The notes: generated by a model not told the origin, from the sequence alone. A stretch of DNA of 64,000 bases from a virus (IMGVR_UViG_3300031993_000021); one strand, 5' to 3'; counted from the stretch's first letter, positions 7,049 through 39,151 are shown. Made by a program: numbers and translations.

Positions 7049-7061
7049 AGGAGGGGAATGC

Positions 7062-7469
7062 ATGGACACAAGAACCATCAATGAGCATTATGCTGAGATA
7101 GGTGCTGAACTGATTAAGACAGAAGAAGCCCTTGAGAGCATAAGAAACAGTACTGCGACCATTATTTACCTGTCTAGTGAGCATAAAAAGACGGGAAGTG
7201 GGAAGGTTGTGAAAGCACAGTGTGAGAAAATCTCGGATAAGTACAAATGGGGGATACCGTGTGACTTCACGATAACGGTTTTTGAGCCAAACTGTGAAGG
7301 AATGACTGAGGAACAGATGAAGATGCTTATTTTCCATGAGCTTTTGCATGTAAAGATAAGCTACAAGGATGACGGAACGGAAGTTTTCGGCATTAATCCA
7401 CATGATCTAGAAGATTTTAAGTTGATTATTGACAGGTTTGGCACAGATTGGGCGGAGGTTAAGGAATGA
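7062..7469 (+). CDS. SprT-like / putative zinc metallopeptidase domain protein
   Basis: HExxH motif IFHELLHV within a SprT-like context; RBS GAGGAGG. Confidence 0.5.
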   Translation: MDTRTINEHYAEIGAELIKTEEALESIRNSTATIIYLSSEHKKTGSGKVVKAQCEKISDKYKWGIPCDFTITVFEPNCEGMTEEQMKMLIFHELLHVKISYKDDGTEVFGINPHDLEDFKLIIDRFGTDWAEVKE

Positions 7470-8959: not shown

Positions 8960-10780
8960 TTGACGGTGCAAGGAACACCATTCTCTTACAAAATGGGTGG
9001 TTTAGAAAAGGATATTATGGCATCTAATGACCTTATTAGAGCTTTTGAAAGTTATAAAAACTATTATGACAGGCACGGAGCGGATGAATCTTTGGTAAAT
9101 GCCTGCATAGAAGCTGCTAAGACCGCGTTTTTTATTGAAAAGGATGAAAAATACGGTCTTGGCATCACATCCGCTACAAAAGACTATATAAACGAGATAG
9201 TAAAAACAAAAACAGGAGCAGGATTCTTTGATCTTGAGAGATATGCGATAGCCCATGATATTGAGTACTCGATAATCAATTCCGGATACGATGTCTACAG
9301 GCTAGAATCATTTTCAAGGTTTGAATCCTACATGCTCTACATTGAACGCGACAGGAGGCAGGAAAAGAGGTTTTATCTGCCAAGAAGGTGCACTCTTAAG
9401 GTAGTTGCGAATGATATGCAGCGCCTTGAGGATGATGAGCTTGATGTATATGGGCTTAGCTTGCCATCGAGAACGGGAAAGTCATCGATTTGTATCTTTT
9501 TCCTTTCGTGGGTAGGAGTAAGGAAGCCAAACAGTCATAACGCGATGGGCGGGCATTCAGGACAGCTGGCAAAGAGATTCTTTAGAGGGCTTGATAACAT
9601 AATCGAGACACCGGATTATCGATATGATGAGGTATTTCATCTTTGGAATCCGACATATCGAGCTGTATTGCAGGCAAAATCATCCGATCCAGCTGAATTT
9701 ACATTAAACCTTGGTTCACCTGATGAATTTGCGACATTTACCTGTCGAGGAGTAGACGGAACATGGACAGGTGCTATCGATGTATCGTCTGATGGCTATT
9801 TATACGTGGATGACCTTATCCGAGATAGAGAACATTCACTTAGTCCTTCGCGAGTAGAGAATACGTACCAGGAATACCAGAACAAGATGCTTGACCGTAT
9901 GAATGACGGTGCGAAGAAGATGCTTGTTGGTACTTTATGGACGGTAAATGATCCGCTTGAGCGTGAGAGAAAGCTTAATGATGGCAACCCAAGGGCGTTA
10001 TTTAGAAAGATACCTGCTCTTAACGAGAATGATGAGAGTAATTTCCAGTATACGACCAAGGGATTCTCTACTCAGTACTATAGGGATATGAGAGACAGAC
10101 TTGATAAGGCTGAATGGATGGCTAAATTCCAACAACAGCCTTTTGTTCGAGAAGGTCTTACGTATCCTATCGAGGAGCTTAGGTTCTTTGATGGTTTCTT
10201 ACCTGTTGGGAACTGTTCGACTATCGCGCATATAGACGTTGCATTTGGTGGCGGAGACAGGCTTTCAATGCCGATATGCAAGGATTTTGGCGAAGAGAAG
10301 AAGTATATCGTTGGTTGGATACATGACAGTCGTTCACCCGGATTTACAGTGCCAAGGGTTGTAGATGCGATTGATAGGTACTATATAACAAAGCTCTTTA
10401 TAGAGAAGAACTCAGGCGGACAGCTCTATGCAGAGAAAGTATCTGAAGAAATGAAGAACAGGGGCATAAACCATTGTAAGATTGAGCTTTATTCCGCGCC
10501 TAACAAGATTTCGAAAAATGACAAGATAAGCGGATATTCAGACTTTGTAAAGCGTAATTTCCTGTTCTTATCGCCTAAAAGCCGTGATTTTTACGAAGAA
10601 GATATAGATTATTACAAAGCAGATGCCGACTACCGCAAGGCACTAGATGAGATGACAACATTCAGTATTGAGGGAAAGGGAAGACAGTTTGATGATTCAC
10701 CGGATTCCATATCATCACTTGCGATGAAGATGGATAACAGGCGGTCAACAAAAGCAAGGATAATGAGTTCACCGATATGA
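8960..10780 (+). CDS. terL: terminase large subunit
   Basis: ATPase region (PSRTGKSS Walker A-like, LYVDDL Walker B); C-terminal RNaseH-like nuclease region (DVAFGGGDRLSM); position immediately upstream of portal. Start uncertain (TTG at 8960 or ATG at 9017). Confidence 0.65.
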   Translation: MTVQGTPFSYKMGGLEKDIMASNDLIRAFESYKNYYDRHGADESLVNACIEAAKTAFFIEKDEKYGLGITSATKDYINEIVKTKTGAGFFDLERYAIAHDIEYSIINSGYDVYRLESFSRFESYMLYIERDRRQEKRFYLPRRCTLKVVANDMQRLEDDELDVYGLSLPSRTGKSSICIFFLSWVGVRKPNSHNAMGGHSGQLAKRFFRGLDNIIETPDYRYDEVFHLWNPTYRAVLQAKSSDPAEFTLNLGSPDEFATFTCRGVDGTWTGAIDVSSDGYLYVDDLIRDREHSLSPSRVENTYQEYQNKMLDRMNDGAKKMLVGTLWTVNDPLERERKLNDGNPRALFRKIPALNENDESNFQYTTKGFSTQYYRDMRDRLDKAEWMAKFQQQPFVREGLTYPIEELRFFDGFLPVGNCSTIAHIDVAFGGGDRLSMPICKDFGEEKKYIVGWIHDSRSPGFTVPRVVDAIDRYYITKLFIEKNSGGQLYAEKVSEEMKNRGINHCKIELYSAPNKISKNDKISGYSDFVKRNFLFLSPKSRDFYEEDIDYYKADADYRKALDEMTTFSIEGKGRQFDDSPDSISSLAMKMDNRRSTKARIMSSPI

Positions 10781-12543: not shown

Positions 12544-12721
12544 GTAAAATCCTTCTTTGTTTGGTCTAATTTAAGTATAACAGATTAAACATTTTATTCA
12601 ATTGCACTAAGATTATAAAAATATTAAAAATGTAGACTTTTTTAGGTAACTTTGGATATAAAATGATAGTGTAAAATAGTTTAAGTGAAAACAGAGCCTA
12701 TAGGGCATAGAAAATACAGCA

Positions 12722-12748
12722 AGCTTTACCTTCGGGTAGGGCTTTTTT
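12722..12748 (+). terminator. hairpin (TTCG tetraloop) plus T-run upstream of portal gene
   Basis: CTTTACC TTCG GGTAGGG followed by TTTTTT. Confidence 0.35.
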
Positions 12749-12761
12749 ATATGGTGAAAAT

Positions 12762-14309
12762 ATGGGCGGTAGAAAAAAGATAATGACCGATGTACCGGTC
12801 GTTACTGCTGACAACATAATATCGATTATTCAAAAAGCAATCGGTGAGCATAGAGAAAACGCCGCTAAGATACAGGAATTGTTTGATTTCGAAGAAGGAT
12901 TTCAGCCGCTTCAGAGAGTAAAGATGTATCGAAGCGACATTGACATAGATGTGACTGATAACATTGCAAATGAGATTGTAGAGTTTAAGGTTGCTTTGAA
13001 CTATGGGAATCCCATTTCTTTTAAGAAGCGCGGTCCTGTAGATGGGATGATTGAAGCAATCCAGATGTGGAATGACCAGTATTTCCTTACGGATTCCGAT
13101 TCAAGCAATCAGGAACTTGCAAGAAACTTTGAGATTTGTGGTATCGGAAATGTATTTATAGATATAAACACCGATTATGAGGAAGGCGATTCCTATTATA
13201 CAAGGACAGTCTTAAATCCAAAGACTTCTTTTGTTATCTATTCATCATATTACTATGACCGTAGACCGATGGTAGGTGTAACCTTCCGAAGGGATGAAGA
13301 TAAAGTAATACATTATACGGCTTTTACAAAAGATTTTAGGTTTGAGATAAAAAATTGGATGATACTGAATCCCGGAGAAGAAAGAGATATTTGGGAACAT
13401 GAAAACAGGAGCGGCGAGGAAAATCCGCTTCATGCGATACCGATTATTGAGTATTTTAGAAGTTATGACAGGATGGGATGCTTTGAAAGACAGATTCCTG
13501 CCATGAACAACCTTAATCTTCTTGTTTCTGACTTCTCAAACGACGTGGACCAGAACACACAGGTAGTATGGTGGGCAAATGATTGTGAATTTGAAACCGT
13601 ACAGGTCGTTAATGACGATGGAACTATTACTGAGAAGATAAAACATCCAAAGTCGAATGAATGGCTTCAGACATTCACATCAAGGGATGGCAAGATACCA
13701 AAAGTTCAGCCACTTACTGTTAATTACGATTATGCAGGAATGCTGAACAACTATATCACTCAGAGAGCTTTGATACTCCAAAAGTGTAACGTGCCTCAGA
13801 GGAATGATAATTCCGGAGGAAGCACGGGCGTAGCCATGAGCGATGCGACAGGATGGAGTGCAGCTGATATTGCGGCTAATAAAGAAGAGATGATTATCTC
13901 TAAGAGCATCAGACAGGAGATAAAAGTCATCTGTGCTGCAATAAGAGAGAGTGAATGTCCTTTGGATAGCCCGCTCAGAAAAATAAAGCCATCTGATATT
14001 GAGCCAAGTATAAAGAGACAGAAGAATTATGAACTTTCAGTAAAGACAACGGCAATATCTAATCTGATTAACATTGGATTTAGCTTGGAAGATACGCTTG
14101 ATGCTGTTCCGTTATTCCCTGATCCAGCGCAGGTTATTGAGCGCAGTAAAGAGGGAGTAGAAGCATATCAGGAAACAAAGCTAAAACAGTCTGAAAAAAG
14201 TGAAGAAGACAATGCGACACCTGGTTCAGACGATCCGATTTACCAGATTGAAAACAGCCCAAATATAGATGGAATGAGCATGGATAATGGCGAAGAGGAT
14301 GAAGATTGA
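12762..14309 (+). CDS. portal protein (SPP1 gp6-like)
   Basis: 515 aa, position after TerL, acidic C-terminus; portal-like N-terminal region. Confidence 0.65.
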   Translation: MGGRKKIMTDVPVVTADNIISIIQKAIGEHRENAAKIQELFDFEEGFQPLQRVKMYRSDIDIDVTDNIANEIVEFKVALNYGNPISFKKRGPVDGMIEAIQMWNDQYFLTDSDSSNQELARNFEICGIGNVFIDINTDYEEGDSYYTRTVLNPKTSFVIYSSYYYDRRPMVGVTFRRDEDKVIHYTAFTKDFRFEIKNWMILNPGEERDIWEHENRSGEENPLHAIPIIEYFRSYDRMGCFERQIPAMNNLNLLVSDFSNDVDQNTQVVWWANDCEFETVQVVNDDGTITEKIKHPKSNEWLQTFTSRDGKIPKVQPLTVNYDYAGMLNNYITQRALILQKCNVPQRNDNSGGSTGVAMSDATGWSAADIAANKEEMIISKSIRQEIKVICAAIRESECPLDSPLRKIKPSDIEPSIKRQKNYELSVKTTAISNLINIGFSLEDTLDAVPLFPDPAQVIERSKEGVEAYQETKLKQSEKSEEDNATPGSDDPIYQIENSPNIDGMSMDNGEEDED

Positions 14310-14943
14310 TGAACTTAATATCTTAAACAGTGAGAATACGCTTGAAGAAGAATCTTTTGATTACAAAGATTACATGGAGCATTACTTTGATACCATGCAG
14401 ATAAGCGCAAGACAGAAAAGAGAGCGTATTGAAGAAGCGGAAGAAATATTTGATGCTATCTTGCTGTTTTTGATATGGTGTGAAGAGAATCCAGAGAACG
14501 TGCAAAGAGAAGATACTAAGCGCGAGATGGGAAATCTTTACAAAGAAGTCATCTTTCAGAATGTAGAGCCTGATGATTTCGTTGATACCTATGTTCTTTT
14601 TTTTATAAACAATCTTGTAGAGGTAACAACAGAAAACCAAGGTGATGAATACTTTACTTCTGTTGAAAGAGCCACAAAGATTGCTTGTAATGAAGCAAAT
14701 AGTGTTATCAATTACTCAGAGCTGCAAAAAGCTATTGAACAGGGATATACCTACAAACAATGGCATACAGAACTTGATGAGAAGGTACGTGTAACCCATC
14801 AGGACATGGAAGGTGTTACGATACCGATAAAACAGCCATTTGCTGTAGGTGGTTCTTTGATGATGATGCCACACGATATAACATTGGGAGCGGATGCGAA
14901 AGAGATAGTTAATTGTAGATGTTCCCTTACTTATCTTGATTAG
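14287..14943 (+). CDS. head morphogenesis protein (SPP1 gp7 / Mu F-like)
   Basis: VRVTHQDMEGV ... PHD ... NCRCSL motifs typical of the gp7/F family; overlaps the portal stop. Confidence 0.7.
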   Translation: MAKRMKIDELNILNSENTLEEESFDYKDYMEHYFDTMQISARQKRERIEEAEEIFDAILLFLIWCEENPENVQREDTKREMGNLYKEVIFQNVEPDDFVDTYVLFFINNLVEVTTENQGDEYFTSVERATKIACNEANSVINYSELQKAIEQGYTYKQWHTELDEKVRVTHQDMEGVTIPIKQPFAVGGSLMMMPHDITLGADAKEIVNCRCSLTYLD

Positions 14944-14956
14944 GGAAAAATTACGA

Positions 14957-14986
14957 AAGCTGTGATGTAGATCATGGCTTTTTTTG
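14957..14986 (+). terminator. rho-independent terminator after head morphogenesis gene
   Basis: AGCTGTGAT gtag ATCATGGCT stem followed by TTTTTTT. Confidence 0.5.
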
Positions 14987-15008
14987 TTGTCAAAAAGGAG
15001 AAAAAGTC

Positions 15009-15197
15009 ATGATTAAGAGTATTGCAGCGAATACCGCAGACGGTGTAGGACATCTTGCATGTGATGATGCAAATGACCTTCCAAATCTTCCGAGCTATGC
15101 GAAATCAAACAACTTAAAACAGGGAACAGATTGCATCGTGATAGATACTTCTGAGGTCTACATGATGAAATCGGATTTTTCATTTAAGAAAATCTAA
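15009..15197 (+). CDS. hypothetical small protein
   Basis: ORF with GGAGAAAAAG RBS. Confidence 0.3.
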   Translation: MIKSIAANTADGVGHLACDDANDLPNLPSYAKSNNLKQGTDCIVIDTSEVYMMKSDFSFKKI

Positions 15198-15208
15198 GGA
15201 GGAAAGCT

Positions 15209-17401
15209 ATGGATATAATTTCGTATGTACTTTCCAAACGCATTGCTGAAGGGGCGGTATCAGGCGTTAGTGGTATGTCTGTAGATGGACAGACTTTAAA
15301 TATAGAGCTTAACGATGGAACACATCTTGAGATGGAATTTCCTACACCGGAAGATGGTGTTTCTATAACTGACGTTAGTGTTGATTCAAGCAAGCATCTT
15401 ATCTGCACAATGTCAGACGGAACATCTATTGATGCGGGTGAAGTACCTACTGTTAAAGGTGATGATGGTGAGCCGGGAGCGGATGGAGAAGACGGAGAAT
15501 CTGCTTATGAGATTGCTGTTGATGAAGGATATGTTGGCACTAAGGAAGAGTGGCTTTCATCTTTAAAGGGCGATGATGGCTTTTCACCTGAGATAGTAGT
15601 TAAGACAAGCACATCTGAGCAGTACATCCTTACAATCACCACAAAGGAAGGTTCTTTTGACACGCCCAACTTAAAAGGCAGCGGAGCAGAAGCTTTAGCT
15701 GACCTTGATGATGTTCAGCTTACAAGCCTTACGACAGGTCAGATTCTTAAATGGGATGGGACCAAGTGGGTAAATGAAGATGGAATAGAGATTGATTCTC
15801 TTGGAGATATTAACGATGTTGATCTTGGAACGCTTGTGGACGGACAGGTTCTTTCATGGGATGCAACAAACAGTAAGTGGGTTAATGCAGATGCAGTAAA
15901 TCCCACACAGTTTGAAACCATGCCGACAGCATCAGAATATCCCCAGGCAGTGATTCAGTATATCGGAGCTGACACAGGTACATATAAGAGAGGATACTTC
16001 TACAGGTCAAATCCTTCTGTTGAGAGCGGAAGCGTTGTTTATACATGGGGACAGATTGATGTTCAGCCAAGTAACTCAGATTATGAGCAGCTTTCAAACC
16101 TTCCACAGATTGACAGTATAGAGATTATCGGCAATAAGTCACTTGATGACTTTGGAATACAGGGGAAAGTTCAGTTTTCTACTTTACCTGCTGCAACAGT
16201 TGAGAACGCTGGAAAGATTGTTCAGTACATCGGAACAACAACAGCGGCTCTTAAGAAGGGATACTTCTATCAGTCAGCATATGACGTTGAATCAGGTGAT
16301 TATGTCTGGGTGCAGGTAGATGTATCAAGCAACAGTGCTTTAGAAAGCAGATTAGATACTGTTGAGGATAACATAGGTGATATGTCAACTCTTGAAGTTG
16401 TTGGCGTAAGTGACCTTGTTGAGGCTGCAAATGCACTTAACGCAAAAGGGCTTAGCACAATCACATATGTTGAACCTAATTTAGTTCTTACATATGCCGA
16501 TGGTTCAGTTATCCGGTTTAACGTAAGGGATTCCATCCTGGATGAAACACAGATTGGTGAACTTGCAAACGTAACCGATACAGCGATAGCAAATGGTAAC
16601 GTTTTGCAGTATGACTCAGCAATCTTAGGATACAAACCTTATGATATCGGTGCTGCACTGACAGCGCTTTTAAATTCAGCAAAAGATTACACGGACCAGG
16701 AGATAGCAGGAGCAGTTCAGGACGATGCGTTTATCGTAGATGCAAAACCTGTTTGTAGTTATGATTCCGGAGCAGATGAATATATTGTTGTTTACTATCA
16801 GAACGGCGTTGTTCATACAACAACGGATACCACAGCAAGATTCTACTATAAAGTAAGCTCTGATCCGTATTGCACATCTTGGTTTGTAACAGGAGATCCT
16901 TCAGTAGATCCAGTTGAATTTACATATCTTCTTAGTACGCCTGATTTTGATGATTATGTCAATAAGAACACGGACGTAACATCAATATATACAACCGATA
17001 TGGTTGATAAGAGCAAGATTCCTAATGTAGCAGCTCTTGATGCTCTTATGGCAATAGTTAACACAGCACTTGCACTTAAGATTAATACATCAAGCATTGT
17101 TGATTCGCTTATTTCACAGGATGCAACAAAAGTCCTGTCGGCTAATCAGGGTTATGTGATAAGTGGTCTTATTGATGATAAGAATGACCAGATGCAGTTT
17201 ACGACAATGCCAAGTGCGGATTCAACTCTTGATGGTGTTGTTTATCAGTACGTAGGAACATCAAGTCAAGCATATACAAAAGGTGCTTTCTATACATGCA
17301 CTTACGATGAAGATAATGATACATGGTATTGGAAAGAAGTAGAGTTTGCCCCGGACATGGTTGCAATTACGACAGCCGAAGTTGATGCGCTTTGGGCATA
17401 A
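15209..17401 (+). CDS. tail fiber-like protein 1 (collagen-like G-X-Y tract, three internal repeats)
   Basis: GDDGEPGADGEDGES collagen-like triplets; three copies of the TMPxAS...QY(I/V)G...Y(K/T)(K/R)G(Y/A)FY module; acidic and Ser/Thr rich. Confidence 0.55.
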   Translation: MDIISYVLSKRIAEGAVSGVSGMSVDGQTLNIELNDGTHLEMEFPTPEDGVSITDVSVDSSKHLICTMSDGTSIDAGEVPTVKGDDGEPGADGEDGESAYEIAVDEGYVGTKEEWLSSLKGDDGFSPEIVVKTSTSEQYILTITTKEGSFDTPNLKGSGAEALADLDDVQLTSLTTGQILKWDGTKWVNEDGIEIDSLGDINDVDLGTLVDGQVLSWDATNSKWVNADAVNPTQFETMPTASEYPQAVIQYIGADTGTYKRGYFYRSNPSVESGSVVYTWGQIDVQPSNSDYEQLSNLPQIDSIEIIGNKSLDDFGIQGKVQFSTLPAATVENAGKIVQYIGTTTAALKKGYFYQSAYDVESGDYVWVQVDVSSNSALESRLDTVEDNIGDMSTLEVVGVSDLVEAANALNAKGLSTITYVEPNLVLTYADGSVIRFNVRDSILDETQIGELANVTDTAIANGNVLQYDSAILGYKPYDIGAALTALLNSAKDYTDQEIAGAVQDDAFIVDAKPVCSYDSGADEYIVVYYQNGVVHTTTDTTARFYYKVSSDPYCTSWFVTGDPSVDPVEFTYLLSTPDFDDYVNKNTDVTSIYTTDMVDKSKIPNVAALDALMAIVNTALALKINTSSIVDSLISQDATKVLSANQGYVISGLIDDKNDQMQFTTMPSADSTLDGVVYQYVGTSSQAYTKGAFYTCTYDEDNDTWYWKEVEFAPDMVAITTAEVDALWA

Positions 17402-17412
17402 GGAGATAAAAA

Positions 17413-19122
17413 ATGAGCTTAAAATATGCTGATGAGACAACTTTACAGGAAATGGTCGTAAAGACTAAACAACATGTTGAGTCAGTTCGTTCTACGCTAG
17501 ACTTAGCTAAACAGAACAAGATGGAATTAGCCACAATGCCGCAAGCCTCAGAGGATTATCTGGGGCTTGTAGTTATTTATACAGGTGTTACTAATTCCAC
17601 ATACACACACGGATATATTTACGAATGTGTTTCTGATGGTGGAGATCCCGCTACATATTCTTGGCAGCAGATTACCGTTCAGGATAGTGTGCAGGTTGAT
17701 GGTACTACTATTGTCAAAGACAGTCAGACAGATATTATCTCGGCAGCTGTTGCTACAAACAATACTGTTGGCGTAGTTAAGAGCGGTGATGGAACAAGTA
17801 TCGCGGCAAACGGTGGAGTAGATGTAACAGATAGGCTGAGAGAAGAGTATGTTGATGATCCTGGAAGCACCGTTCAAGACGTGGGCAGATTTGCTTTAAA
17901 TACAACTGAACACGGCGATTATAAGAAGGGCGGTATTTATCAGCTTGTAAGTACTCAGGTTACTCCTGTGGGAACAGAAAATCCCAGTGATGAGGGCTGG
18001 TATGAATATGACAGCACAAATCAGGAATATGAGTTATCTGAAGATGTTACAGTAGATGTTCAAAAGACATACTACACAATCGCATGGGTTTTAGTAAGCG
18101 CCAATTCAACAGAGTTTGATAGCGATGATTTTGATGTGGTCGGTGATAATGTAAGCCTTGACGTGTCTCAGAGAACATTCACAGGAACAAGAGATGAGTG
18201 GGATACATTAAGTAGCTCAGAAAAAGCACTCTACAAGCAAGTTGCACTTACTGATGATGAGGTTGCTTCACACGCTGATACCGATAATGAAATTGCAGAT
18301 ATGAATAATATCTTAGGTGCGAAGAATCTTTTGCCTGTAACAATGGTTTCGCAAGTTTTATCCGGAATTACATTTACTGTGGATGCTTCAAGCGGAGTAA
18401 TAAGCGTAAGTGGAAGCAATTCTGGAAGTCCTTTTAGTGATGTTCTTGGAATAACTACACTAACTCCTGGAACATATAAAGTGACAACAGGACAGACACC
18501 TGAGTTAAATGCACAGATTGGAATAGCTATAACGGATGCTTCTTCTGGAACAATTATAGCGCGTAGTTGGAATGGAACTGAAGTTTTTACAATTTCTTCA
18601 AACACTCAAGTGAGATTTCATATAGAAGTAAATGTTACAGGAGCAATCACTTCAACAGTCGTTTATCCAATGTGTAGACCTTTATCAATTAAAGATGAGA
18701 AATATGTGCCATATGCACCGACTAACCGAGCGTTGACTTTGCGAGTTAGCAGTTTTGAAAAAAAGTTTAATACTCAAGTTAGTATGACCGTCCAACCAAA
18801 TACGACATATTTTAATGCCGCTTCGTCTCAAAGTTGCGCAGCATTAAAAATCGGTTATCTTGTTGTGATGAACTTAGTTTTATCAGTTAAAGATAACGTG
18901 ACGGTTCCTGCTGGCACATTAGCATGCACTATTACCAATGTTGGAGCAATAAGCGCTAACAGCTCGATTTTCCTCGGAGGTAATGGTACATCAAACATCA
19001 CAAGGTTAATGCTTAGGAGAAATCAATCAAATTCCGATAATCTTGATGTTTACTTTATCGATTCTTATAGTAATAGTTCAATGAGAGCATCGCTTGTATT
19101 TATGGTCAATACTATTGTTTGA
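17413..19122 (+). CDS. tail fiber / receptor-binding protein 2
   Basis: Shares the TMPQASE...Y.HGYIYEC module with fiber 1. Shares the central NNILGAKNLLP...GITFTVDASSGVISVSG and VYPMCRPLSIKDEKYVPYAPTN blocks with fiber 3. Confidence 0.55.
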   Translation: MSLKYADETTLQEMVVKTKQHVESVRSTLDLAKQNKMELATMPQASEDYLGLVVIYTGVTNSTYTHGYIYECVSDGGDPATYSWQQITVQDSVQVDGTTIVKDSQTDIISAAVATNNTVGVVKSGDGTSIAANGGVDVTDRLREEYVDDPGSTVQDVGRFALNTTEHGDYKKGGIYQLVSTQVTPVGTENPSDEGWYEYDSTNQEYELSEDVTVDVQKTYYTIAWVLVSANSTEFDSDDFDVVGDNVSLDVSQRTFTGTRDEWDTLSSSEKALYKQVALTDDEVASHADTDNEIADMNNILGAKNLLPVTMVSQVLSGITFTVDASSGVISVSGSNSGSPFSDVLGITTLTPGTYKVTTGQTPELNAQIGIAITDASSGTIIARSWNGTEVFTISSNTQVRFHIEVNVTGAITSTVVYPMCRPLSIKDEKYVPYAPTNRALTLRVSSFEKKFNTQVSMTVQPNTTYFNAASSQSCAALKIGYLVVMNLVLSVKDNVTVPAGTLACTITNVGAISANSSIFLGGNGTSNITRLMLRRNQSNSDNLDVYFIDSYSNSSMRASLVFMVNTIV

Positions 19123-19172
19123 TTGATGCATTTTATAAACATTGAGACCACGAGTTTAGGAAGGAGAGAACA

Positions 19173-20696
19173 GTGGGATTATATGAAAATACACAAGATG
19201 GATTAAAACTTATAGCGGGTTCGACTCTATATGCAGATTTAGCTGTGGGTTCGATTATACCTTTTGGTGGTTCTGTGATACCTACATCTTTCCTTCTTTG
19301 TGATGGAAGTGCTATAAGTAGAACAGGATATGCAGAGCTGTTTGCAGCTATAGGAACAGCATTTGGCACAGGTGATGGAAGTACAACGTTTAATCTTCCT
19401 GATCTAAGAGAGTCCGTACCAAAGGGTGCAGGAGAGACAGGACAGACAGTTGGCGCTCATGTAAAGAGCGGTGGTCTTGCTGTCGGTGAGTTCTTGGATG
19501 ATAGAATACAAGACCATACGCATGAGCTTTCAGAAACACCTAATTTTTCTTATTTAACTGGTGAGGGAAACTATAAAGTTGTTCCTGTTTCTAGTGGTTC
19601 TACTCCAACTGGTACAGTCTCAAACACTTATAGATATGGTGCTACCACCGAAGTCAAATCAGTAGGTGTCAACTACATCATCAAAGCAAAACCGGTTGCA
19701 GTTCCAGCTGATTTCATCGATGCAGCAGAAGATTATATCGATGGAAAGTTAGCTGATAAGCAGTCAACATACGCAGCTGATTCTACAAAATGGGATGCAG
19801 CACCTACCACAGGAAGCACAAAGCCTGTCATAAGTGATGGAATAAAGACACAGTTTGATTTAGTACATAATGAGCTTTCTGATGTAAATAATATCCTTGG
19901 TTCAAAGAATATCCTGCCAAACAGTGCTACAACACAGGTAATAAATGGTATCACATATACTGTTGCAGCTGATGGTAGTGTAAATGTAAACGGAACAGCT
20001 ACGGCTGATTCTATTTTGCATATTATTCCTGGAACGATAGGAAAGCTTAGCAATATATTCTCCAAGGGTGGAAATTATATTATCTCCGCAGGAACAACAG
20101 GAACAGGAGTTGATGTTTTCTTTGGTCTTGAGTACACAGGCACAACTTGGGATATTGGAGAATGGCTTAAATATACAACGCAGCTCTCAAAGGAAATATA
20201 TATTGACGGAACGAAATTAAATAACAGTTCATCCTATATAGAGAGCTATATAAAGGTAAATAGCGGAACTACAGTAAGTAACATCAAAGTATATCCTATG
20301 CTTAGACCGTCGTCGGTTAGGGATGATACATATGTTCCTTATAGCAAGACGAATTATGAACTTACTGAGGAAAATAAAGAACTTAGTTCGGAAATTAGCA
20401 ATTTTGCGCACACCGTGTCTGGCAATAAAGTTGATATAACACCATATAATTCAAGCTCTAATGCTTATACAGCGCAATCAGATGGATATTTATATCTAAA
20501 TAATCAGAACAACCCTAACTTGACAATATTGGTATATATCAATGACTCAGCGGGTTATTCAATCGGTGGATGTAGACATTTTTCGGGCGGAACAACGTTC
20601 CAAATAACATCCTTATATGTCAAAAAAGGACTTAAGCTTTACAGAGCCGATGGTTCAAGTGCAGGCGTTGCATGGTTTTTCCCGCTTGAATCCTAA
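19173..20696 (+). CDS. tail fiber / receptor-binding protein 3 with switchable C-terminus
   Basis: Homologous central domain to fiber 2 (NNILGSKNILP...GITYTVAADGSVNVNG, VYPMLRPSSVRDDTYVPYSKTN). The last 100 codons lie inside an apparent invertible segment. Confidence 0.6.
   Translation: MGLYENTQDGLKLIAGSTLYADLAVGSIIPFGGSVIPTSFLLCDGSAISRTGYAELFAAIGTAFGTGDGSTTFNLPDLRESVPKGAGETGQTVGAHVKSGGLAVGEFLDDRIQDHTHELSETPNFSYLTGEGNYKVVPVSSGSTPTGTVSNTYRYGATTEVKSVGVNYIIKAKPVAVPADFIDAAEDYIDGKLADKQSTYAADSTKWDAAPTTGSTKPVISDGIKTQFDLVHNELSDVNNILGSKNILPNSATTQVINGITYTVAADGSVNVNGTATADSILHIIPGTIGKLSNIFSKGGNYIISAGTTGTGVDVFFGLEYTGTTWDIGEWLKYTTQLSKEIYIDGTKLNNSSSYIESYIKVNSGTTVSNIKVYPMLRPSSVRDDTYVPYSKTNYELTEENKELSSEISNFAHTVSGNKVDITPYNSSSNAYTAQSDGYLYLNNQNNPNLTILVYINDSAGYSIGGCRHFSGGTTFQITSLYVKKGLKLYRADGSSAGVAWFFPLES
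20396..20411. repeat. left inverted repeat / putative recombinase crossover site (tAGCAATTTtGCGcAC)
   Basis: 14/16 nt identical to the reverse complement of 21072-21087; lies in frame within the fiber 3 codons ...S N F A... Confidence 0.45.
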
Positions 20697-20780
20697 ATTA
20701 ATAGAGTTCCTTTAATCGAATTTCGACGATAAATTTGCTATAAACAAAAATATTTAATAAGTAAACGAATTTGTTTAGCT

Positions 20781-21089
20781 TTAGATAGGCATAAGCGGAT
20801 AGAAGTAAGCTGTTCTATGGTCAGTTGTTCCGCCCAATTTAACTTTTAAGCCCTTTCGGATAAAGAGTGCTAAATAGGGTGTTGAATATAAGCCTGCATT
20901 TGGCGGTGAACTTACATTCAATACATCACGATTTGTATTTTCAATTTGCAACCAAGCATAACGACCTTGTGCATTATCAAACGTTATTGTAACGTAACCA
21001 TCACAAGGAATTTCGTGCCAATAACTGTCTGTCCAACTTGTGAACCCCGTTGTATCGAGCTTGTAAGATTGGTTCGCTAAATTGCTATA
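20781..21089 (-). other. silent alternative tail-fiber C-terminal cassette (102 codons, no start codon, no RBS)
   Basis: Minus-strand frame open from just after a stop at 21090-92 to the stop at 20781-83. It encodes YSNLANQSYKLDTTGF...CDGYVTITFDNAQ...LFIRKGLKVKLGGTTDHRTAYFYPLMPI, homologous to the fiber 3 C-terminus ...SDGYLYL...LYVKKGLKLYRADGSSAGVAWFFPLES. Confidence 0.55.
21072..21087. repeat. right inverted repeat / putative crossover site
   Basis: Reverse complement TATAGCAATTTAGCGAA matches 20396-20411; in frame with the cassette codons Y S N L A. Confidence 0.45.
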
Positions 21090-21291
21090 TTACGAAGATC
21101 TTAACTTGCTGGTAAGAGAATATATTATCTTTTAAAACGCAAAAAACGCTTATTTTAGGGAAAAGCTAACTTGCTTTTAATTTGCTGATATACCATTAGT
21201 AGGTATAAACAGTAACGCTGATGCTACGTGCAAAGGCTGTTGGTTTTTTAGATACATAAAGAATCTAAAATAGGAACTCAAATGATTTGAG

Positions 21292-22332
21292 TTGTTATTG
21301 AAAGAAATTAAACCTCCTGTCAATATAATGGCAGGAGGTGATTTTGTGGAAGAAGTAATAAACAAAATTGTAAATGCGATGGATGATTTAACTCCGGAGC
21401 AGATAAGGAAATTAAAGAATGTATTGGTTATAAATCTCAGCAACCGATATGAACAAAAGAACGAGGTTTGTACAAGCTTAAGTAGTTGGGAGATGCTATT
21501 AAATAATTATCTTGGCTGTAAAAAGCTTGAAAACTGTTCTAACGGTACGCTAAAGAACTATCAGAGAATTGTAAGGATTATGTATTCTCAGATAGGAAAA
21601 GATATTAGGGATATAACAGCTAATGATCTTAGATTGTTTATGGCAAGATACATTGAGCAGCGAAAGATTTCTACACGATATTCTGAGACGATAAGGCTTA
21701 CGCTTTGTGCGTTTTTTCAATGGTGTCAGAATGAGGAAATCATAACTGCGAACCCGGCTAGAAAGTTGCAAAGAATAAAGATTCCTAAAATGCTTAGAAA
21801 GCCCTACACAGCAGAGGAAAGGCTAAGGCTTACAAGAGCTGCTAAAAATATAAGGGACATAGCAATAATGGAAGTACTTTATAGTACAGCTGCTAGACTG
21901 GGTGAGATTTTAGCATTGAATATAGACGATATCAAATTTATTGGAAATAAAGCTGAAATCATCATCTACGGGCAAAAAGGCAAGGCAGAAAGAAAGGTAT
22001 ATCTTTCAGAAGAAAGTGTCTACTTTCTGAGAAGATACTTGGAATCAAGAACTGATAATGATCCAGCACTTTTTGTTTCTTTGCGTAAACCGCATAAGAG
22101 GATTGATGAAAGAGCTGTTCAGCGAATGATAAAGGATATAGGTGAAAGATGTGGAATTAAGGCACATCCTCACAAGTTTAGAAGAACACTCTTAACAGAC
22201 ATGAGTAAGCGTGGAGCAAGTATTCAGGATATTAAGGAATACGCCGGTCATGCAAAGATTGAAACGACTATGCTTTATGTTTCTGTTAATGAAGAATCGG
22301 TCAAAGCCGCATTTGATAGATTTATAAGTTGA
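21292..22332 (+). CDS. tyrosine recombinase (XerC/D / Rci-like), candidate fiber invertase
   Basis: N-terminal SAM-like core-binding domain; catalytic residues R (AARLGE), HxxR (HPHKFRRT) and Y (TTMLYVSV). Sits immediately next to the invertible fiber segment. The phage also carries a separate serine integrase. Confidence 0.7.
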   Translation: MLLKEIKPPVNIMAGGDFVEEVINKIVNAMDDLTPEQIRKLKNVLVINLSNRYEQKNEVCTSLSSWEMLLNNYLGCKKLENCSNGTLKNYQRIVRIMYSQIGKDIRDITANDLRLFMARYIEQRKISTRYSETIRLTLCAFFQWCQNEEIITANPARKLQRIKIPKMLRKPYTAEERLRLTRAAKNIRDIAIMEVLYSTAARLGEILALNIDDIKFIGNKAEIIIYGQKGKAERKVYLSEESVYFLRRYLESRTDNDPALFVSLRKPHKRIDERAVQRMIKDIGERCGIKAHPHKFRRTLLTDMSKRGASIQDIKEYAGHAKIETTMLYVSVNEESVKAAFDRFIS

Positions 22333-22432
22333 AAATACTAAAATATAGGCTTTTAGAAGCTGTCCGAGAGGATGGCTTATTTTGCGTGTATTTTTTTATA
22401 AACATTTATGAGAAGACGAAAGGAGAAGTATT

Positions 22433-22930
22433 ATGTTTAGACTTGTTGAAATCACAAGGAGTGCGGATAATGAAACTCAGGCACTAAGAGAGTATGCATC
22501 AGAGGTAGAAGCAAGTGGAGAATTGCATTACAGGCTTGGAACAGCAATGAAAGATGAAAACACTCAGGTAAAACTTCTTCTCTTGCTTAATAATATCGGT
22601 GAGGTTGTAGAAAGCGGAAGCCATTTTAAGACTCATGAAGTTGAAGAAGTAGTTGAAACTGAGAATGGCGAAACGGAGACAATCACCACTGAAGTAGAGT
22701 ATGAGGTTAGCCCAAGACTTATCGACGTAAAGGTAACAGACAGTGAAGTTGGTAATATTGCCAAATACGATACAAACCTCGATGTAGTAGCAAACTATCA
22801 TAGCAAGCTTGGTTCTGCTAAGAAAAACGCAGATGTAAAAGCAATTATGCTTAGAGGTATCGATGGCAAAGGAAACCAGCTTGAGTATACATATTGGGTT
22901 AGACCGGCAACCGTACCTAGTGAATCATAA
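22433..22930 (+). CDS. hypothetical acidic protein
   Basis: ORF with AGGAGAAG RBS. Confidence 0.35.
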   Translation: MFRLVEITRSADNETQALREYASEVEASGELHYRLGTAMKDENTQVKLLLLLNNIGEVVESGSHFKTHEVEEVVETENGETETITTEVEYEVSPRLIDVKVTDSEVGNIAKYDTNLDVVANYHSKLGSAKKNADVKAIMLRGIDGKGNQLEYTYWVRPATVPSES

Positions 22931-22943
22931 ATGAGGGCAGAAT

Positions 22944-23282
22944 ATGTTTACAACGGGACAGATTTGGGGCTTTTTAGTTGTACTTATAGGACTTATCCTT
23001 ACGATATTAAACATCATAGAGAAAGCAATCCTTCTTAAAGCAAGGTCGAAAGAACCACAGGCAAAATTAGAGAGCAGGATAGTGGCTCTTGAAACATGGA
23101 GATTAGAAGTGAACCAGAGACTTGATAAGGACGAAGAACACTTTGACAAGATTGATGAAGGAAACAAGGTGACGCAGCAGGCGCTTCTTGCGTTAATGGA
23201 TGCTGCCTTGTCGGATGATGGAAGCAAGGGTGAACTTAAATCAGCAAGAAAAGACTTATATGAATATCTGTCAAAGAAATAG
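22944..23282 (+). CDS. BhlA/UviB-like holin-type membrane protein
   Basis: Single N-terminal TM (IWGFLVVLIGLILTILNII) followed by coiled coil, as in BhlA-family proteins. Confidence 0.35.
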   Translation: MFTTGQIWGFLVVLIGLILTILNIIEKAILLKARSKEPQAKLESRIVALETWRLEVNQRLDKDEEHFDKIDEGNKVTQQALLALMDAALSDDGSKGELKSARKDLYEYLSKK

Positions 23283-23294
23283 AAAGGAGACACT

Positions 23295-23495
23295 ATGAAA
23301 CTTAGTGATTTTTTGGCTGCCTTAAAGAGTCCTAATGTGCAGGTTGTTGTAACTGACTTGCAGGATGTTGAAATATGTAAGATTTTTGCAACGTCTTACA
23401 CAGCACTTGATGAATCAGTAAGTGAAAGGACTATCAATAGATGGACCATTAACAGTGCAACGAATATAGGAATTGTGCTGAATGACGCAACATAA
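23295..23495 (+). CDS. hypothetical small protein
   Basis: ORF with AGGAGA RBS. Confidence 0.3.
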   Translation: MKLSDFLAALKSPNVQVVVTDLQDVEICKIFATSYTALDESVSERTINRWTINSATNIGIVLNDAT

Positions 23496-23612
23496 AACAT
23501 TGGACTTCGGTTCTAAATATGCTAGAATAGCATGGATGCTACCAAAAGCGGTAGGCGGTTGGCTCTTTGCCAGGTAAAACCTGAGAACTCCCTTGTTAAA
23601 AGGAGGTGTTTC

Positions 23613-23759
23613 ATGGGAAATCTGCTATGGAGCTTTGATGCTAAGACTATTGCTTATAACTTTGAGTATGGACTTAGTGATAATGGGGGCAATAATCTTC
23701 GTTATCGCAGTCATCTTAAAGTTCAAGAGATAAATTTTTCCATCAAAAAAGACCGCTGA
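23613..23759 (+). CDS. hypothetical small protein
   Basis: AAGGAGG RBS 7 nt upstream of the ATG at 23613. Confidence 0.3.
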   Translation: MGNLLWSFDAKTIAYNFEYGLSDNGGNNLRYRSHLKVQEINFSIKKDR

Positions 23760-24228
23760 ACACTTTGGACGAGTAGGAAGCGATCTTTTTTGATTGCAAC
23801 TATAAACCAGAGCTAACCGTCTATCGGTAGCATCTTTCTATAACATAATAACATAAATTAACCAAATAGCAAAATCTTTCCATAATGTTTGCAAACCAAA
23901 CTATCCCCCCATGATTGGTTTGCTCCTCCTCTAGGACATCTATGTTTCATCGCATAGGTGTCTTTTTTGTCTGCTAGGCAAAACGATTTCCTCTTACTAG
24001 GGCGTATGGTGGTCAAACATCATGCGCTCTTTTTCTTTATCTGCCAGGGTGAAGAACGCATTACAAAACCTCCGGGTGTGTATCTGTCAAAGGATATGCA
24101 CCTTATCTACGCTCAGATTTATTCTGGGCGTTTTTTATTGTCATAAAAAGAACCTGAGAGAACAGTAAACACGCCATGAGGTTAGAGAAAACCCCAACAA
24201 AAAACACGAAAAGGAGAACACAGAAGAT

Positions 24229-24879
24229 ATGAAGAACAAAGTCAGAACCAACGAATTGTTACCTATTAACTTGCAGTTTTTTGCCGAGGATGCAGCTGAA
24301 GGGGCAGATGAAAGCTCTGTATCGACGGACGGAGAAGGAAAATCTGAACCTGATGAAGGCGAACCATCCAAGAGTTATGAGGATGCGTTAAGTGAGATAG
24401 CAGCAGCTAAGGCAGAAGCTAAAAAGCTAAAGGCAGAAAGGGACGCAGCGCTTAAAAAGACGGGTGAAATTTCCAAACAGCTAAGAGCAAAGATGTCTGA
24501 GGATGAACTTAAGGCAGAACAGGATGCACAGGCTAAAGAGGAAAAAGAAGCTCATATCAAAGAGCTTGAGCAGTACAAGGCAGAGAATGAAGCACTTAAA
24601 CGCTATAGGCTTCAGGGCATGTCTGATGATCTTGCTACTAAGGCTGCAAAAGCTGAGATAGAGGGTGACATGGATGCACTTGCTGATGTTCAGAAACAGC
24701 ATACACAGTCTCTTATCAAAGCAAAAGAAGCTGAATGGAAAGCATCACGTCCACGCGTAAACGTTGGCGATGATGAAGATTCTTCAATGACAAAGGAAGA
24801 GATTTTAGCAATTCAGGACAGAAACGAACGTACACAGGCAATTGCTTCTCATCTTTCTTTGTTTACAAAAAAAGCATAA
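24229..24879 (+). CDS. scaffolding protein
   Basis: Acidic, Ala/Lys/Glu-rich coiled coil (AAAKAEAKKLKAERDAALKK); immediately upstream of the capsid gene. Confidence 0.55.
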   Translation: MKNKVRTNELLPINLQFFAEDAAEGADESSVSTDGEGKSEPDEGEPSKSYEDALSEIAAAKAEAKKLKAERDAALKKTGEISKQLRAKMSEDELKAEQDAQAKEEKEAHIKELEQYKAENEALKRYRLQGMSDDLATKAAKAEIEGDMDALADVQKQHTQSLIKAKEAEWKASRPRVNVGDDEDSSMTKEEILAIQDRNERTQAIASHLSLFTKKA

Positions 24880-24892
24880 AGGAGAAGAAAAA

Positions 24893-26065
24893 ATGGCAGC
24901 TGAAACTAATCTTATTAAGAAAGCCGACCTTGCTAAGGCAAGAGAGCTAGAGTTCGTTTATCGCTTCACCGACAGTATTAAGAAGCTCGTTGAGGCACTT
25001 GGAGTAACCAGAAAAGAAGCAAAGGTTGCAGGTACATACCTTAAGGCTTATAAGGCAACAGGTACTCTTCAGGATGGACTTGTTGCTGAGGGCGATATCA
25101 TTCCTCTTAGCCACTATAAGACTGTTCCTGTTAACTTCGGTGAGATTCCTTTCAAGAAATGGAGAAAGGCTACATCTGCTGAAGCTATCATCGAGAAAGG
25201 TTACAATCAGGCAGTTACAATGACTACTGATGAAATGCTCAAGGATGCTCAGAAGGGTATCAAGAAGTATTTCTTCAACTTCCTTTCACAGGGTACAGGA
25301 CTTGCATCCGGAACAACATTTCAGGCAACACTTGCAGCTATCTGGGGACAGTTACAGGTTCTCTTTGAGGATACAGAGATTGAGGCTGTATACTTCATGA
25401 ACCCTCTTGATGTTGCAGATTATCTTGGCTCTGCACAGATTACTGTTCAGCAGGTATTCGGAATGTCTTATGTTGAGAACTTCCTTGGACTTGGAACAGT
25501 TATTCTCAACTCAAATATTCCGAAGGGAACTATCTACGGAACAGCTAAGGAGAACTTGGTTCTTTACTTTGTTCCTGTAAACGGCGCTGATCTTGACGAA
25601 GTATTTGAGTTCACATCTGATGAGCTTGGCTACATCGGAATCCATGAGCTTCCTGATTACAAGACAATGACAGCTGAGGATGTTGTTGTATCAGGTATCG
25701 TTCTCTTTGCTGAGAGAATCGATGGTATTGTTGTTGGTGAGATTGGTGCTACTGTAGCACCTACAATCACAACTCCTGATGTTACAATTGATCCTACAAC
25801 ACATGTAGGAACATACACAATTCCTGTTGGCGGAAGAGACACTATCCATATTAAGGTTGCACCTTCCGGAACAGAGTTTACTGTTACATCTTCTGATACA
25901 TCTGAGGCAAAACTTAAGGTTGAGGATGGACTTCAGAATAATGACATTATCATTACAGGTATCGATAGCACAACTTCTGGTGGCACAGATACTCCTGTTA
26001 GAATTACATGCACTGCTGGCAGCACATCAATTTACATCGATGTAACTGTTTCAGCTAGTGCTTGA
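24893..26065 (+). CDS. major capsid protein with C-terminal bacterial Ig-like (Big_2-type) decoration domain
   Basis: GGAGAAGAAAAA RBS then ATG at 24893; capsid-like core; C-terminal Thr/Ser-rich beta-sandwich (TYTIPVGGRDTIHIKVAPSGTEFTVTSSDTSEAKLKV ... ITCTAGSTSIYIDVTVSA). Confidence 0.6.
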   Translation: MAAETNLIKKADLAKARELEFVYRFTDSIKKLVEALGVTRKEAKVAGTYLKAYKATGTLQDGLVAEGDIIPLSHYKTVPVNFGEIPFKKWRKATSAEAIIEKGYNQAVTMTTDEMLKDAQKGIKKYFFNFLSQGTGLASGTTFQATLAAIWGQLQVLFEDTEIEAVYFMNPLDVADYLGSAQITVQQVFGMSYVENFLGLGTVILNSNIPKGTIYGTAKENLVLYFVPVNGADLDEVFEFTSDELGYIGIHELPDYKTMTAEDVVVSGIVLFAERIDGIVVGEIGATVAPTITTPDVTIDPTTHVGTYTIPVGGRDTIHIKVAPSGTEFTVTSSDTSEAKLKVEDGLQNNDIIITGIDSTTSGGTDTPVRITCTAGSTSIYIDVTVSASA

Positions 26066-26085
26066 TAGAAAGAAGGGGAAGGCGT

Positions 26086-26436
26086 ATGCAGTATGAAGTA
26101 ATTAGATATTTTACTGATGCGCAGGATAACGAGTATGCTTACCGCGAGGGTGATATTTACCCTCGCGAGGGCTATACCGTTTCAGATGCGCGTATAAAGG
26201 ATCTGCTTAGCGGAAACAACTTTCAGAGAGTACCACTTATCAAGCGTGTGACAAACTCAAACGTTAAGAAAGAGAAGAAAGTTGAAGAAGCTAAGGAATA
26301 CACAGCTGAAGACATCATGAAGATGCCTTATATGAAGCTTAAATCTGTTGCAAGACAGAATAATGTCGATGTTAAGGATAGAGAAGCTGTTGAAATAAGA
26401 AATGAACTTATTGAGAAGTTGGGGTTAGGAACATGA
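26086..26436 (+). CDS. hypothetical head protein
   Basis: RBS GAAGGGGAAGG; ORF in the head module. Confidence 0.35.
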   Translation: MQYEVIRYFTDAQDNEYAYREGDIYPREGYTVSDARIKDLLSGNNFQRVPLIKRVTNSNVKKEKKVEEAKEYTAEDIMKMPYMKLKSVARQNNVDVKDREAVEIRNELIEKLGLGT

Positions 26437-37681: not shown

Positions 37682-37690
37682 GGAGGCAAT

Positions 37691-39142: not shown

Positions 39143-39151
39143 GGAGTTATT

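Follow-up and report, generated by a model that had tools for sequence, protein, structure and literature searches.

The window, a stretch of 64,000 nucleotides (nt) of viral DNA (IMGVR_UViG_3300031993_000021) to whose full length all positions refer, carries on its + strand the late operon of a siphovirus-like phage, in which a block of ~9.3 kb lies between a MuF/gp7-like head morphogenesis gene and the scaffold gene. We conclude that this block is most probably a clade-specific tail-fibre island, fixed at this place in the ancestral phage of a rumen siphophage group and bearing a switch of fibre tips operated by a Xer-like tyrosine recombinase. Its open reading frames (ORFs), all on the + strand, are a small gene (o15009), three fibre genes (fib1, fib2 and fib3), the recombinase gene and four small ORFs, and they are followed by a non-coding stretch (Table 1). 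An earlier note on this DNA had described the block (14944-24228) as made of three fibre-like genes, an invertible cassette, a tyrosine recombinase and four small genes, and this anatomy is confirmed.

In the mechanism that we propose, fib3, the last fibre gene of the block, would carry a two-state phase-variation switch. The recombinase (21346-22332) would bind two oppositely oriented 25-bp sites and flip the 692-bp segment between their cores, replacing the expressed tip of the fibre (tipA, 97 amino acids (aa)) by a silent one (tipB, 99 aa). The swap would alter receptor specificity and leave a stop codon before the tip that has become silent.

The invertible segment and its recombination sites

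The two sites read in the same frame, the left one inside fib3 (TCG GAA ATT AGC AAT TTT, S E I S N F) and the right one, as its reverse complement, 196 nt upstream of the recombinase ORF (TCG TAA TAT AGC AAT TTA, S * Y S N L). A set of 27 sites from 10 loci, most of them paired in opposite orientation, yields the consensus T(T/A)CG(C/G)AAAT-TAGCAA-TTT(T/A)GCGAAC, a 25-bp dyad made of two imperfect inverted 9-bp arms and an asymmetric TAGCAA core. Arms around an asymmetric core are the usual layout of the core site of a tyrosine recombinase. In the whole window the consensus is matched at the two borders of the cassette only, for 0 matches expected by chance (100 shuffles), and this result, together with the natural flips in a sister phage described below, supports the invertible cassette of the earlier note.

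Exchange within the shared core TAGCAATTT would join residues 1-410 of fib3 to the 99-aa tipB and move tipA behind the stop codon that lies just outside the core at the silent position, the last 97 aa of the fibre being replaced by 99 others. Indeed, the open frame of tipB (21080-20784, - strand) is in frame with fib3 after inversion, and both tips are open after the exchange. The two tips have in common a C-terminal motif, ..KGLK..F/YxPL, and no tail-fibre assembly gene was found within the segment. A flipped copy of 20396-21087 would be recognized by its junction sequences, GGAAATTAGCAATTTAGCGAACC and its partner.

A Xer-like recombinase tied to fibre tips

The recombinase gene, which the earlier note had rightly assigned to the tyrosine family, has its maximal ORF from 21292 and a likely GTG start at 21346. 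NCBIfam models place the protein among XerA/XerC/XerD-type recombinases (2e-59 to 5e-35, all below the equivalog cut-offs); profile searches detected no arm-binding domain, and an exact-protein look-up returned no record. Just before the gene, a hairpin formed by ACCTCCTG paired with CAGGAGGT holds its Shine-Dalgarno motif (GGAGG) and may limit translation of the invertase, keeping its expression low.

Orthologues with 58-94% identity adjoin fibre-tip cassettes in other phages. In the siphovirus contig L091 (86% identity), the tape measure gene and two tail genes precede a fibre of 481 aa with a tipA-like tip, behind which come a silent tip on the reverse strand and then the recombinase; in L098 (58% identity), a myovirus-like contig with baseplate genes, the recombinase stands by the terminal tail-fibre gene and a silent reverse-strand tip; in L090 it lies upstream of an endolysin. 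The best matches among GenBank phages (29-36% identity) are from uncultured gut phages and Clostridia phages, among them Clostridium phage phiCp-D and Terrisporobacter phage TPELB_ph1, where the homologues sit between the last tail gene and the holin and are annotated as integrases.

These annotations, and the Xer-like assignment by the family models, would suit a prophage integrase or a Xer-type dimer resolvase beside which the inverted repeats are fortuitous. We consider such a role hardly credible, given that the site occurs at the two cassette borders only, that the same sites bound natural inversions, that the gene is tied to fibre-tip cassettes across unrelated phages and that the phage has a separate large serine recombinase (449 aa) with a Resolvase domain, which is the obvious candidate for its integrase. 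This is the sole Resolvase-domain protein of the window, and none adjoins the invertible segment. An integrase function of the tyrosine recombinase was accordingly set aside, on account of both the serine integrase candidate and the sites that bound the natural inversions.

Natural inversion in sister phages

Inversion was found in one and the same sister phage, represented by two independent assemblies, L088 (IMG/VR 3300037400_003300, 83 kb) and L092 (Ga0326513_10000107, 62 kb), which are 99.7-100% identical over 17 kb save for two site-bounded segments in opposite orientations. The first, upstream of the recombinase gene (L088 6958-7585), is the fibre-tip segment homologous to that of the window, and the second (L088 9121-9680) is another pair of tip cassettes downstream of that gene. 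L105 has the same four-site layout, and its second segment is partly inverted relative to L003. In sister phages the recombinase gene is found between two cassette pairs (second pair: L088 9118-9680; L105 17768-18352; L094 481-2153), and the downstream sites are of a slightly different version, CAATT-TAGCAA-ATTTGCGAAC. At the level of genome comparison, natural inversion at these sites is demonstrated in the sister phage. The sister phages thus carry a true shufflon, the window has the simple two-state form, and L001, which has lost the recombinase and retains degenerate sites only, is a locked derivative. We infer that the segment of the window flips likewise and that its two tips bind different receptors.

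Assembly can go wrong at short inverted repeats, and the ends of several contigs (L094, L116) fall close to the cassette; the inversions between L088 and L092 might on these grounds be artefacts of assembly at repeats. This is highly improbable, as two separate segments are each flipped precisely at conserved cores within long and otherwise nearly identical contigs, the repeats (22-23 nt) are shorter than typical assembly k-mers and the reading frames are intact in both states.

A different 25-nt inverted repeat was observed in L006 (68% portal identity), with copies at 6511-6535 and 8303-8327 that are 96% complementary and lie 1.8 kb apart, one within a + strand fibre ORF and the other within a - strand fibre ORF of 477 aa. 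No recognizable recombinase was seen nearby, and the repeat may mark another inversion system of the island, unrelated to the first.

A tip cassette shared with unrelated phages

The complete site-to-site stretch of the window (20382-21096), with tipA and tipB, is found at 99.0% identity over 715 nt in L117 (10679-11393), a small siphovirus from the Logan assembly of SRR19546275, and the segment is also present in L118. In L117 the cassette forms the 3' end of a 330-aa gene, the gene order being tape measure protein, Dit_N protein, 358-aa protein, 330-aa gene, holin and GH25/CW_7 endolysin. Otherwise, the only match between the window phage and L117 is a 45-aa CW_7 repeat in their endolysins. 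No recombinase gene lies beside the cassette of L117, which is either locked or flipped in trans. The same exchange of parts is seen in single proteins: P0194 and P0198, whose constant part is unrelated, end in tips with 98-99% identity to tipA, and many fib3 homologues, P0111-P0114 among them, keep the constant part and bear quite different tips, joined exactly at ..EISN.

The assignment of the fibres as receptor-binding proteins of tail-fibre type, predicted from sequence, is well supported, and with it the idea of a host-range module advanced by the earlier note. Indeed, the cassette is common to the canonical receptor-binding gene of L117, and an inversion switch of this type is a working one. 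As for what moves between phages, the mobile unit is the 715-bp tip cassette, together in a looser sense with the fibre shafts, and not the block of 9.3 kb. A further and tentative reading, possible but doubtful, likens the 25-bp sites to those of integron cassettes: they could be docking points for a pool of tip cassettes shared among the unrelated phages of one host, and the fibres of the clade might be mounted on the neck or head. We raise it because the window and an unrelated siphovirus share the whole segment at 99% and little else, because unrelated constant parts bear identical tips, with the junction exactly at the ..ISN encoded by the site, and because some carriers without an adjacent recombinase would need one supplied in trans by a co-resident phage.

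Age and origin of the island

Relatives covering a wide range of portal identity were drawn from IMG/VR, JGI metagenomes, GTDB genomes and Logan assemblies. In all 10 distinct relatives that reach past the MuF-like gene (L001-L006, L011, L012, L105 and L115; portal identity 47-95%), this gene is immediately followed by a homologue of o15009 and by fibre genes, and the interval from MuF to scaffold measures 6.1-8.3 kb in those whose contig extends to the scaffold gene. Both flanks are conserved: the MuF-like protein is 88-90% identical in L001-L003 and L105, which are close relatives, and 36-73% identical in the more remote relatives, and the scaffold protein is 90-95% identical over the whole gene in L001, L003, L089 and L105. 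Outside the clade the block is absent. At ~50% portal identity, 72 loci pass from portal to scaffold within ~200 nt; L016 has MuF and then the scaffold gene after 153 nt; portal, MuF and scaffold genes are adjacent in L111 (44%) and MT835477 (35%); and two cultured or complete phages at 27% have the portal and then the scaffold gene. The compact SPP1-like order, in which the gp7-like gene leads straight to the scaffold gene, is absent from the window and its clade and is found in the outgroups L008, L016 and L111.

Within the block, nucleotide identity to close relatives is 80-90% from the portal gene to ~15450, that is, through o15009 and the first ~82 codons of fib1, and resumes at 22932 with o22944, o23295, the leader and the scaffold gene; only patches match in between. 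The ends of the block (o15009, residues 1-84 of fib1, o22944 and o23295) are conserved and its middle is mosaic, and the interior would be a recombination hot spot where fibre shafts and tips are replaced. GC content is 0.389 in the block and 0.386 and 0.381 in the flanks, and codon usage correlates at 0.907 between the block and core structural genes and at 0.890 among the latter. A foreign composition was on this basis rejected, both measures being indistinguishable from those of the flanks. Pfam searches gave almost no matches for 20 block ORFs of L006, L011 and L012, and a megablast search of 12700-26100 against GenBank phages gave none.

The block is best described as an old, clade-specific insertion relative to the wider portal family, as judged from these alignments, and the insertion would have become fixed in the ancestor of the rumen siphophage group, whose contigs are often ~78 kb and whose origin is clearly the rumen or foregut. 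Because fibre genes occupy this spot in every checkable relative at 47-95% portal identity, the arrangement is ancestral and not a recent acquisition. The earlier note had proposed a self-contained, horizontally acquired module, and only part of this stands. The absence of the block from outgroups at ~50%, 44%, 35% and 27% portal identity agrees with an insertion, but the block is fixed clade-wide and was not recently acquired; the note had itself held that related phages with the same fibre genes here would speak for an ancestral arrangement, which is what is found inside the clade. Nor is the block self-contained, as it has no room for a promoter of its own and follows the late operon in strand and order, and the comparison with the flanks that the note had called for revealed no compositional signature.

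A recent transfer of the entire block from another phage, as one self-contained cassette, would be consistent with its absence at 50% portal identity or less, with its mosaic interior, with the 99% match of the invertible segment to an unrelated phage and with the recombinase-plus-fibre units found at canonical tail positions elsewhere. We nevertheless judge it quite unlikely: position and ends are the same in every checkable relative, GC content and codon usage are those of the flanks, the space from the terminator to the first gene is too short for a promoter, and recent exchange is visible in sub-parts of the block only. We retain an old island whose interior would be renewed piecemeal.

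The large terminase gene was seen to be interrupted in L004 (712-3498) and L005 (6148-8940) by ~0.8-1.0 kb between residues ~104-174, which points to an inserted intron, intein or homing endonuclease.

The fibres and their place on the virion

The three fibre-like genes of the earlier note are borne out, fib1 and fib3 by profiles and fib2 by its alignment to fib3 and a repeat that it shares with fib1. In fib1, the clade-conserved residues 1-84 are followed by a short Gly-X-Y stretch and repeated beta domains; residues 1-84 are 74-77% identical in close relatives and the remainder is replaced. The family of this N-terminal domain numbers 83 clusters, where the domain is almost always encoded as a separate protein with a length of 115-140 aa (most often 138-140 or 116 aa); in the window it is fused to a long fibre. 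The repeat common to fib1 and fib2 is N-terminal in fib2, a paralogue of fib3 with no family match and no Protein Data Bank (PDB) match of its own. A phmmer search of the three fibres against PDB sequences returned only a long tail fibre (E 0.0025) on the Collar region of fib3 and nothing useful. The first domain in the AlphaFold2 model of fib3 residues 230-507 has a weak likeness to beta-sandwiches of the carbohydrate-binding-module type (E ~1e-3, TM ~0.45 to the targets), to be taken as a hint only.

Every relative with the block whose contig extends beyond MuF retains the small gene o15009, which occurs also in L111, a phage with no block at this place; the o15009 family (26 clusters) is confined to the clade. 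The AlphaFold2 model of the protein is confident (pLDDT 95.9), and its fold is best matched, among viral proteins, by one domain of a siphovirus protein of 503 aa (TMq 0.81, E 1.3e-4) and more weakly by the trimerisation domains of collagens XV/XVIII and several tail-fibre proteins. From this modelled fold, o15009 is probably a small fibre-associated module of trimerisation type. Residues 1-84 of fib1 would be the virion anchor and, with o15009, would make up the end by which the fibre apparatus is attached or assembled. Look-ups of the o15009 and o22944 proteins gave nothing beyond contigs that were too short or matched the window exactly. One relative, L002, has an additional cysteine-rich ORF of 327 aa (6208-7191), possibly that of a homing endonuclease, which separates its o15009 homologue from its anchor gene.

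Several points weigh against a tail-fibre island with a recombinase-driven tip switch. The window recombinase is a putative catalyst of the inversion only, and the left and right sites of the window agree at 20 of 25 positions only. No assembly was found with the segment of the window flipped, L116 being identical and in the same orientation, and exact scans of IMG/VR for the window cassette gave 0 flipped junctions and 0 unflipped ones alike, which makes them uninformative. L001, without the recombinase, and L117, without one beside its cassette, indicate that certain copies may be locked, or may depend on a recombinase acting in trans. The model of fib3 residues 230-507 is of low confidence (pLDDT 58.7). 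Finally, the fibre genes belong to the head module, beside the portal and MuF genes, in every lineage, and by this position the presumed point of attachment of the fibres could be the neck or head.

This last point leads to an alternative in which fib1-3 encode fibres attached to the capsid or to the portal and neck, like the head fibres of phi29 or the whiskers of T4, the tail tip being encoded after the tape measure gene and the virion having two spatially separate binding systems. It would agree with the full gene set at 35438-39616, with the confinement of the anchor and o15009 families to the clade, and with L111, where a gene like o15009 stands between a fibre gene of 1384 aa and the portal gene, immediately before the latter. 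We hold it to be unlikely, as the tip cassette of fib3 is that of the canonical post-Dit receptor-binding gene of L117, fib3 has a tail Collar domain and matches tail-fibre PHROGs, orthologous recombinase-and-tip units are found at tail positions in other phages, and gene position alone is weak evidence for a place on the virion. The tail-fibre assignment is thus preferred. Regarding the claim of two separate sets of receptor-binding proteins, it is plausible but weakly supported: the proteins encoded after the tape measure gene gave no informative family match, and their sole tie to the fibres of the block is a short fibre motif common to 37691-39142 and fib2.

Hairpins, leader and expression of the block

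The terminator that had been placed after the gp7-like gene is real and is located at 14955-14982; it has a free energy of about -13.4 kcal/mol (centroid fold) and a z of -2.4 in a 69-nt window. Since only 26 nt separate it from the start codon of o15009, there is no room for a promoter of the block's own, and the block would have to be transcribed from upstream. Its genes have the strand and order of the late operon, and they would be transcribed together with the late genes through leaky or antiterminated hairpins.

The gap of ~470 bp that the earlier note had reported before the scaffold gene is also confirmed, as a leader of 469 nt (23760-24228). It contains three tandem elements of hairpin and U-tract (23933-23964, 23999-24030 and 24109-24131; z -4.2 to -5.2), a fourth hairpin (~23742-23794) spans its start, and as a whole it looks like a leader that needs antitermination. 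A weak promoter-like site was observed inside it at 23858-23886. The view that terminators bound the block does not hold, as similar hairpins, not particular to the block, occur across the rest of the late region (12721, 29114, 34995 and 40970), among other places before the portal gene and after the tape measure gene; terminators as module borders were discarded on this ground.

Relation to known systems

The closest precedent, by analogy, would be the Rin shufflon of Bifidobacterium prophages, which its authors claim as the first phage-encoded invertase of the tyrosine family acting on a receptor-binding protein (PMC6109161, Mavrich et al. 2018); it was later seen in Eggerthella prophages (PMC8778435), and programmed inversions in tail-fibre genes are enriched across bacteria (PMC9881135). 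As with Rin, a phage-encoded tyrosine recombinase distinct from the integrase stands by a receptor-binding gene, a constant N-terminal part is followed by dissimilar C-terminal cassettes (here tipA on the + strand and silent tipB on the - strand), short in-frame crossover sites, here in inverted orientation, lie at the cassette junctions, and inversions are deduced by genome comparison, here in L088/L092 and partly in L105/L003, not in the cassette of the window itself. However, the hosts of Rin phages are Actinobacteria, whereas the present phages are low-GC and rumen-derived; the Rin site is the 11-bp rix, here a 25-bp dyad around TAGCAA; the window has two cassettes only, and its sister phages four sites with the recombinase between two cassette pairs; and the locus is in the head module, while that of Rin follows the tape measure and Dit genes.

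The Gin, Cin, Pin and Min systems (Mu, P1, e14 and p15B) likewise invert a segment to swap the C-terminal part of a tail fibre and thereby host range, but they rely on serine invertases with an enhancer and Fis, and the present system has a tyrosine recombinase (PF00589) and no tail-fibre assembly gene inside the segment. Sandmeier and colleagues reportedly proposed, in the early 1990s, that Min and Cin also exchange fibre segments at their crossover sites in a mosaic fashion. In the R64 shufflon (Rci, sfx sites, pilV tips), a tyrosine recombinase also acts on short asymmetric in-frame sites to shuffle the C-terminal tips of an adhesin, and the four-site loci L088 and L105 resemble such a multi-segment shufflon; there the adhesin is that of a conjugative pilus, here the tip is that of a phage fibre, and the window recombinase is Xer-like. 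Regarding the head module, the order of portal, MuF/gp7-like, scaffold and capsid genes is the same as in SPP1 (gp6, gp7, gp11 and gp13), but 9.3 kb of fibre and recombinase genes are intercalated here between the gp7-like and scaffold genes, and outgroups are compact.

Each part of the system is of a known kind, and what is unusual is its location in the head module and a flip cassette shared with an unrelated phage. In a limited search of the literature, which is not proof of novelty, no such switch was described for phages of Firmicutes or of the rumen, tyrosine-recombinase switching of receptor-binding proteins being reported for actinobacterial prophages only. The host range of rumen and gut phages is hard to predict, and fibre-tip switching is one cause; the same strategy is now found in low-GC rumen phages, on evidence that includes inversions seen in nature, a 25-bp site of defined sequence and cassettes that are almost identical between unrelated phages. 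It provides a testable system for how phages share receptor specificities, for the annotation of 'integrases' beside tail fibres and for engineering a switchable host range. Moreover, a fixed fibre island inside the head-gene cluster makes gene order an unsafe guide to function in these phages.

Small genes of the block and other features of the window

Table 1. Positions of the block, its flanks and other features discussed, in window coordinates
Feature	Position	Strand	Evidence or remark
Large terminase	8960-10780	+	
SPP1-type portal	12762-14309	+	PF05133, 4.5e-31
MuF/gp7-like head morphogenesis gene, left conserved flank	14287..14943	+	PF04233 3.3e-9; phrog_2468 1.1e-19
Terminator-like hairpin and U-tract after MuF	14955..14982	+	12-pair stem by scan
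o15009, 62 aa	15009..15197	+	39-87% identity across loci
fib1, 730-aa fibre	15209..17401	+	Phage_fiber_rpt 5.3e-8; tail-fibre/tail-protein PHROGs
fib2, 569-aa fibre, fib3 paralogue	17413..19122	+	blastp vs fib3 26% over 479 aa, E 5e-18
fib3, 507 aa, whole gene	19173-20696	+	PF07484 Collar 4.3e-22; 17 mostly tail-fibre/collar PHROGs
fib3 constant part, aa 1-410, Collar at aa 26-83	19173..20402	+	
Left recombination site, TTCGGAAAT-TAGCAA-TTTTGCGCAC	20387..20411	+	in frame S-E-I-S-N-F-A-H
Invertible segment, 692 bp core to core	20396..21087		
tipA, expressed 97-aa C-terminal tip of fib3	20403..20696	+	translation
tipB, silent 99-aa alternative tip	20781..21080	-	translation; stop codon 20781-20783
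Right recombination site, reverse complement TTCGTAATA-TAGCAA-TTTAGCGAAC	21072..21096	-	
Hairpin with recombinase Shine-Dalgarno	21312..21339	+	11-pair stem
Xer-like tyrosine recombinase, putative invertase	21346..22332	+	PF00589 3e-33; SAM_4 4e-8
Terminator-like hairpin after recombinase	22357..22378	+	z -4.3
o22433, 165 aa	22433..22930	+	weak phrog_6360 match only
o22944, 112 aa, N-terminal hydrophobic segment and coiled coil	22944..23282	+	conserved right end of block
o23295 (66 aa) and o23532 (75 aa), small conserved ORFs	23295..23759	+	no family matches
Non-coding leader before scaffold gene, 469 nt	23760..24228	+	82-89% nt identity in relatives
Scaffold gene, right conserved flank	24229..24879	+	phrog_172
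Major capsid protein	24842-26065	+	phrog_544
Three further tail genes after tape measure	35438-39616	+	
Holin candidate, two transmembrane segments	39631-39867	+	abuts endolysin
CHAP/CW_7 endolysin	39867-40574	+	
Large serine recombinase, 449 aa, Resolvase domain	46148-47497	opposite	25 kb from cassette

Among the small genes at the right of the block, o22433 is found with 73% identity in L002 and L089 and is absent in others; its slot is the one where sister phages have their second invertible cassette pair. The next gene, o22944, is 92-97% identical in close relatives, whether the recombinase is present or not. It had been labelled a BhlA/UviB-like holin-type protein (22944-23282), a label for which no profile match was obtained: PHROG and NCBIfam gave none, and Pfam at E <=0.01 gave only a weak DUF7365 coiled-coil match, so that what remains is a likeness of topology, a hydrophobic segment followed by a coiled coil. 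A holin role was rejected, as the holin candidate at 39631-39867 adjoins the endolysin.

The head-tail genes follow the capsid gene on its 3' side and precede that of the tape measure protein (1665 aa, 29992-34989). The 38% GC content of the phage and its CHAP/CW_7 endolysin would fit a low-GC Gram-positive host. The relatives L105 and L106 were binned in metagenome-assembled genomes titled Aeriscardovia sp. (buffalo abomasum) and Lachnospiraceae (rumen). Such titles were distrusted as a source of the host, phage contigs being often mis-binned, and Aeriscardovia is unlikely to be the host because the GC content of the phage is 38%.

An Rfam scan of the whole window returned one tRNA (56487-56556, 44.6 bits) and nothing else, the 469-nt leader included; ARAGORN gave no tRNA there on the same window. 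Two further genes are transcribed opposite to the late genes, on the - strand: that of a FtsK/SpoIIIE-family ATPase (592-1725), near the left end of the window, and that of a YhgA-like putative transposase (PF04754; 42032-42865), just 3' of the lysis genes.

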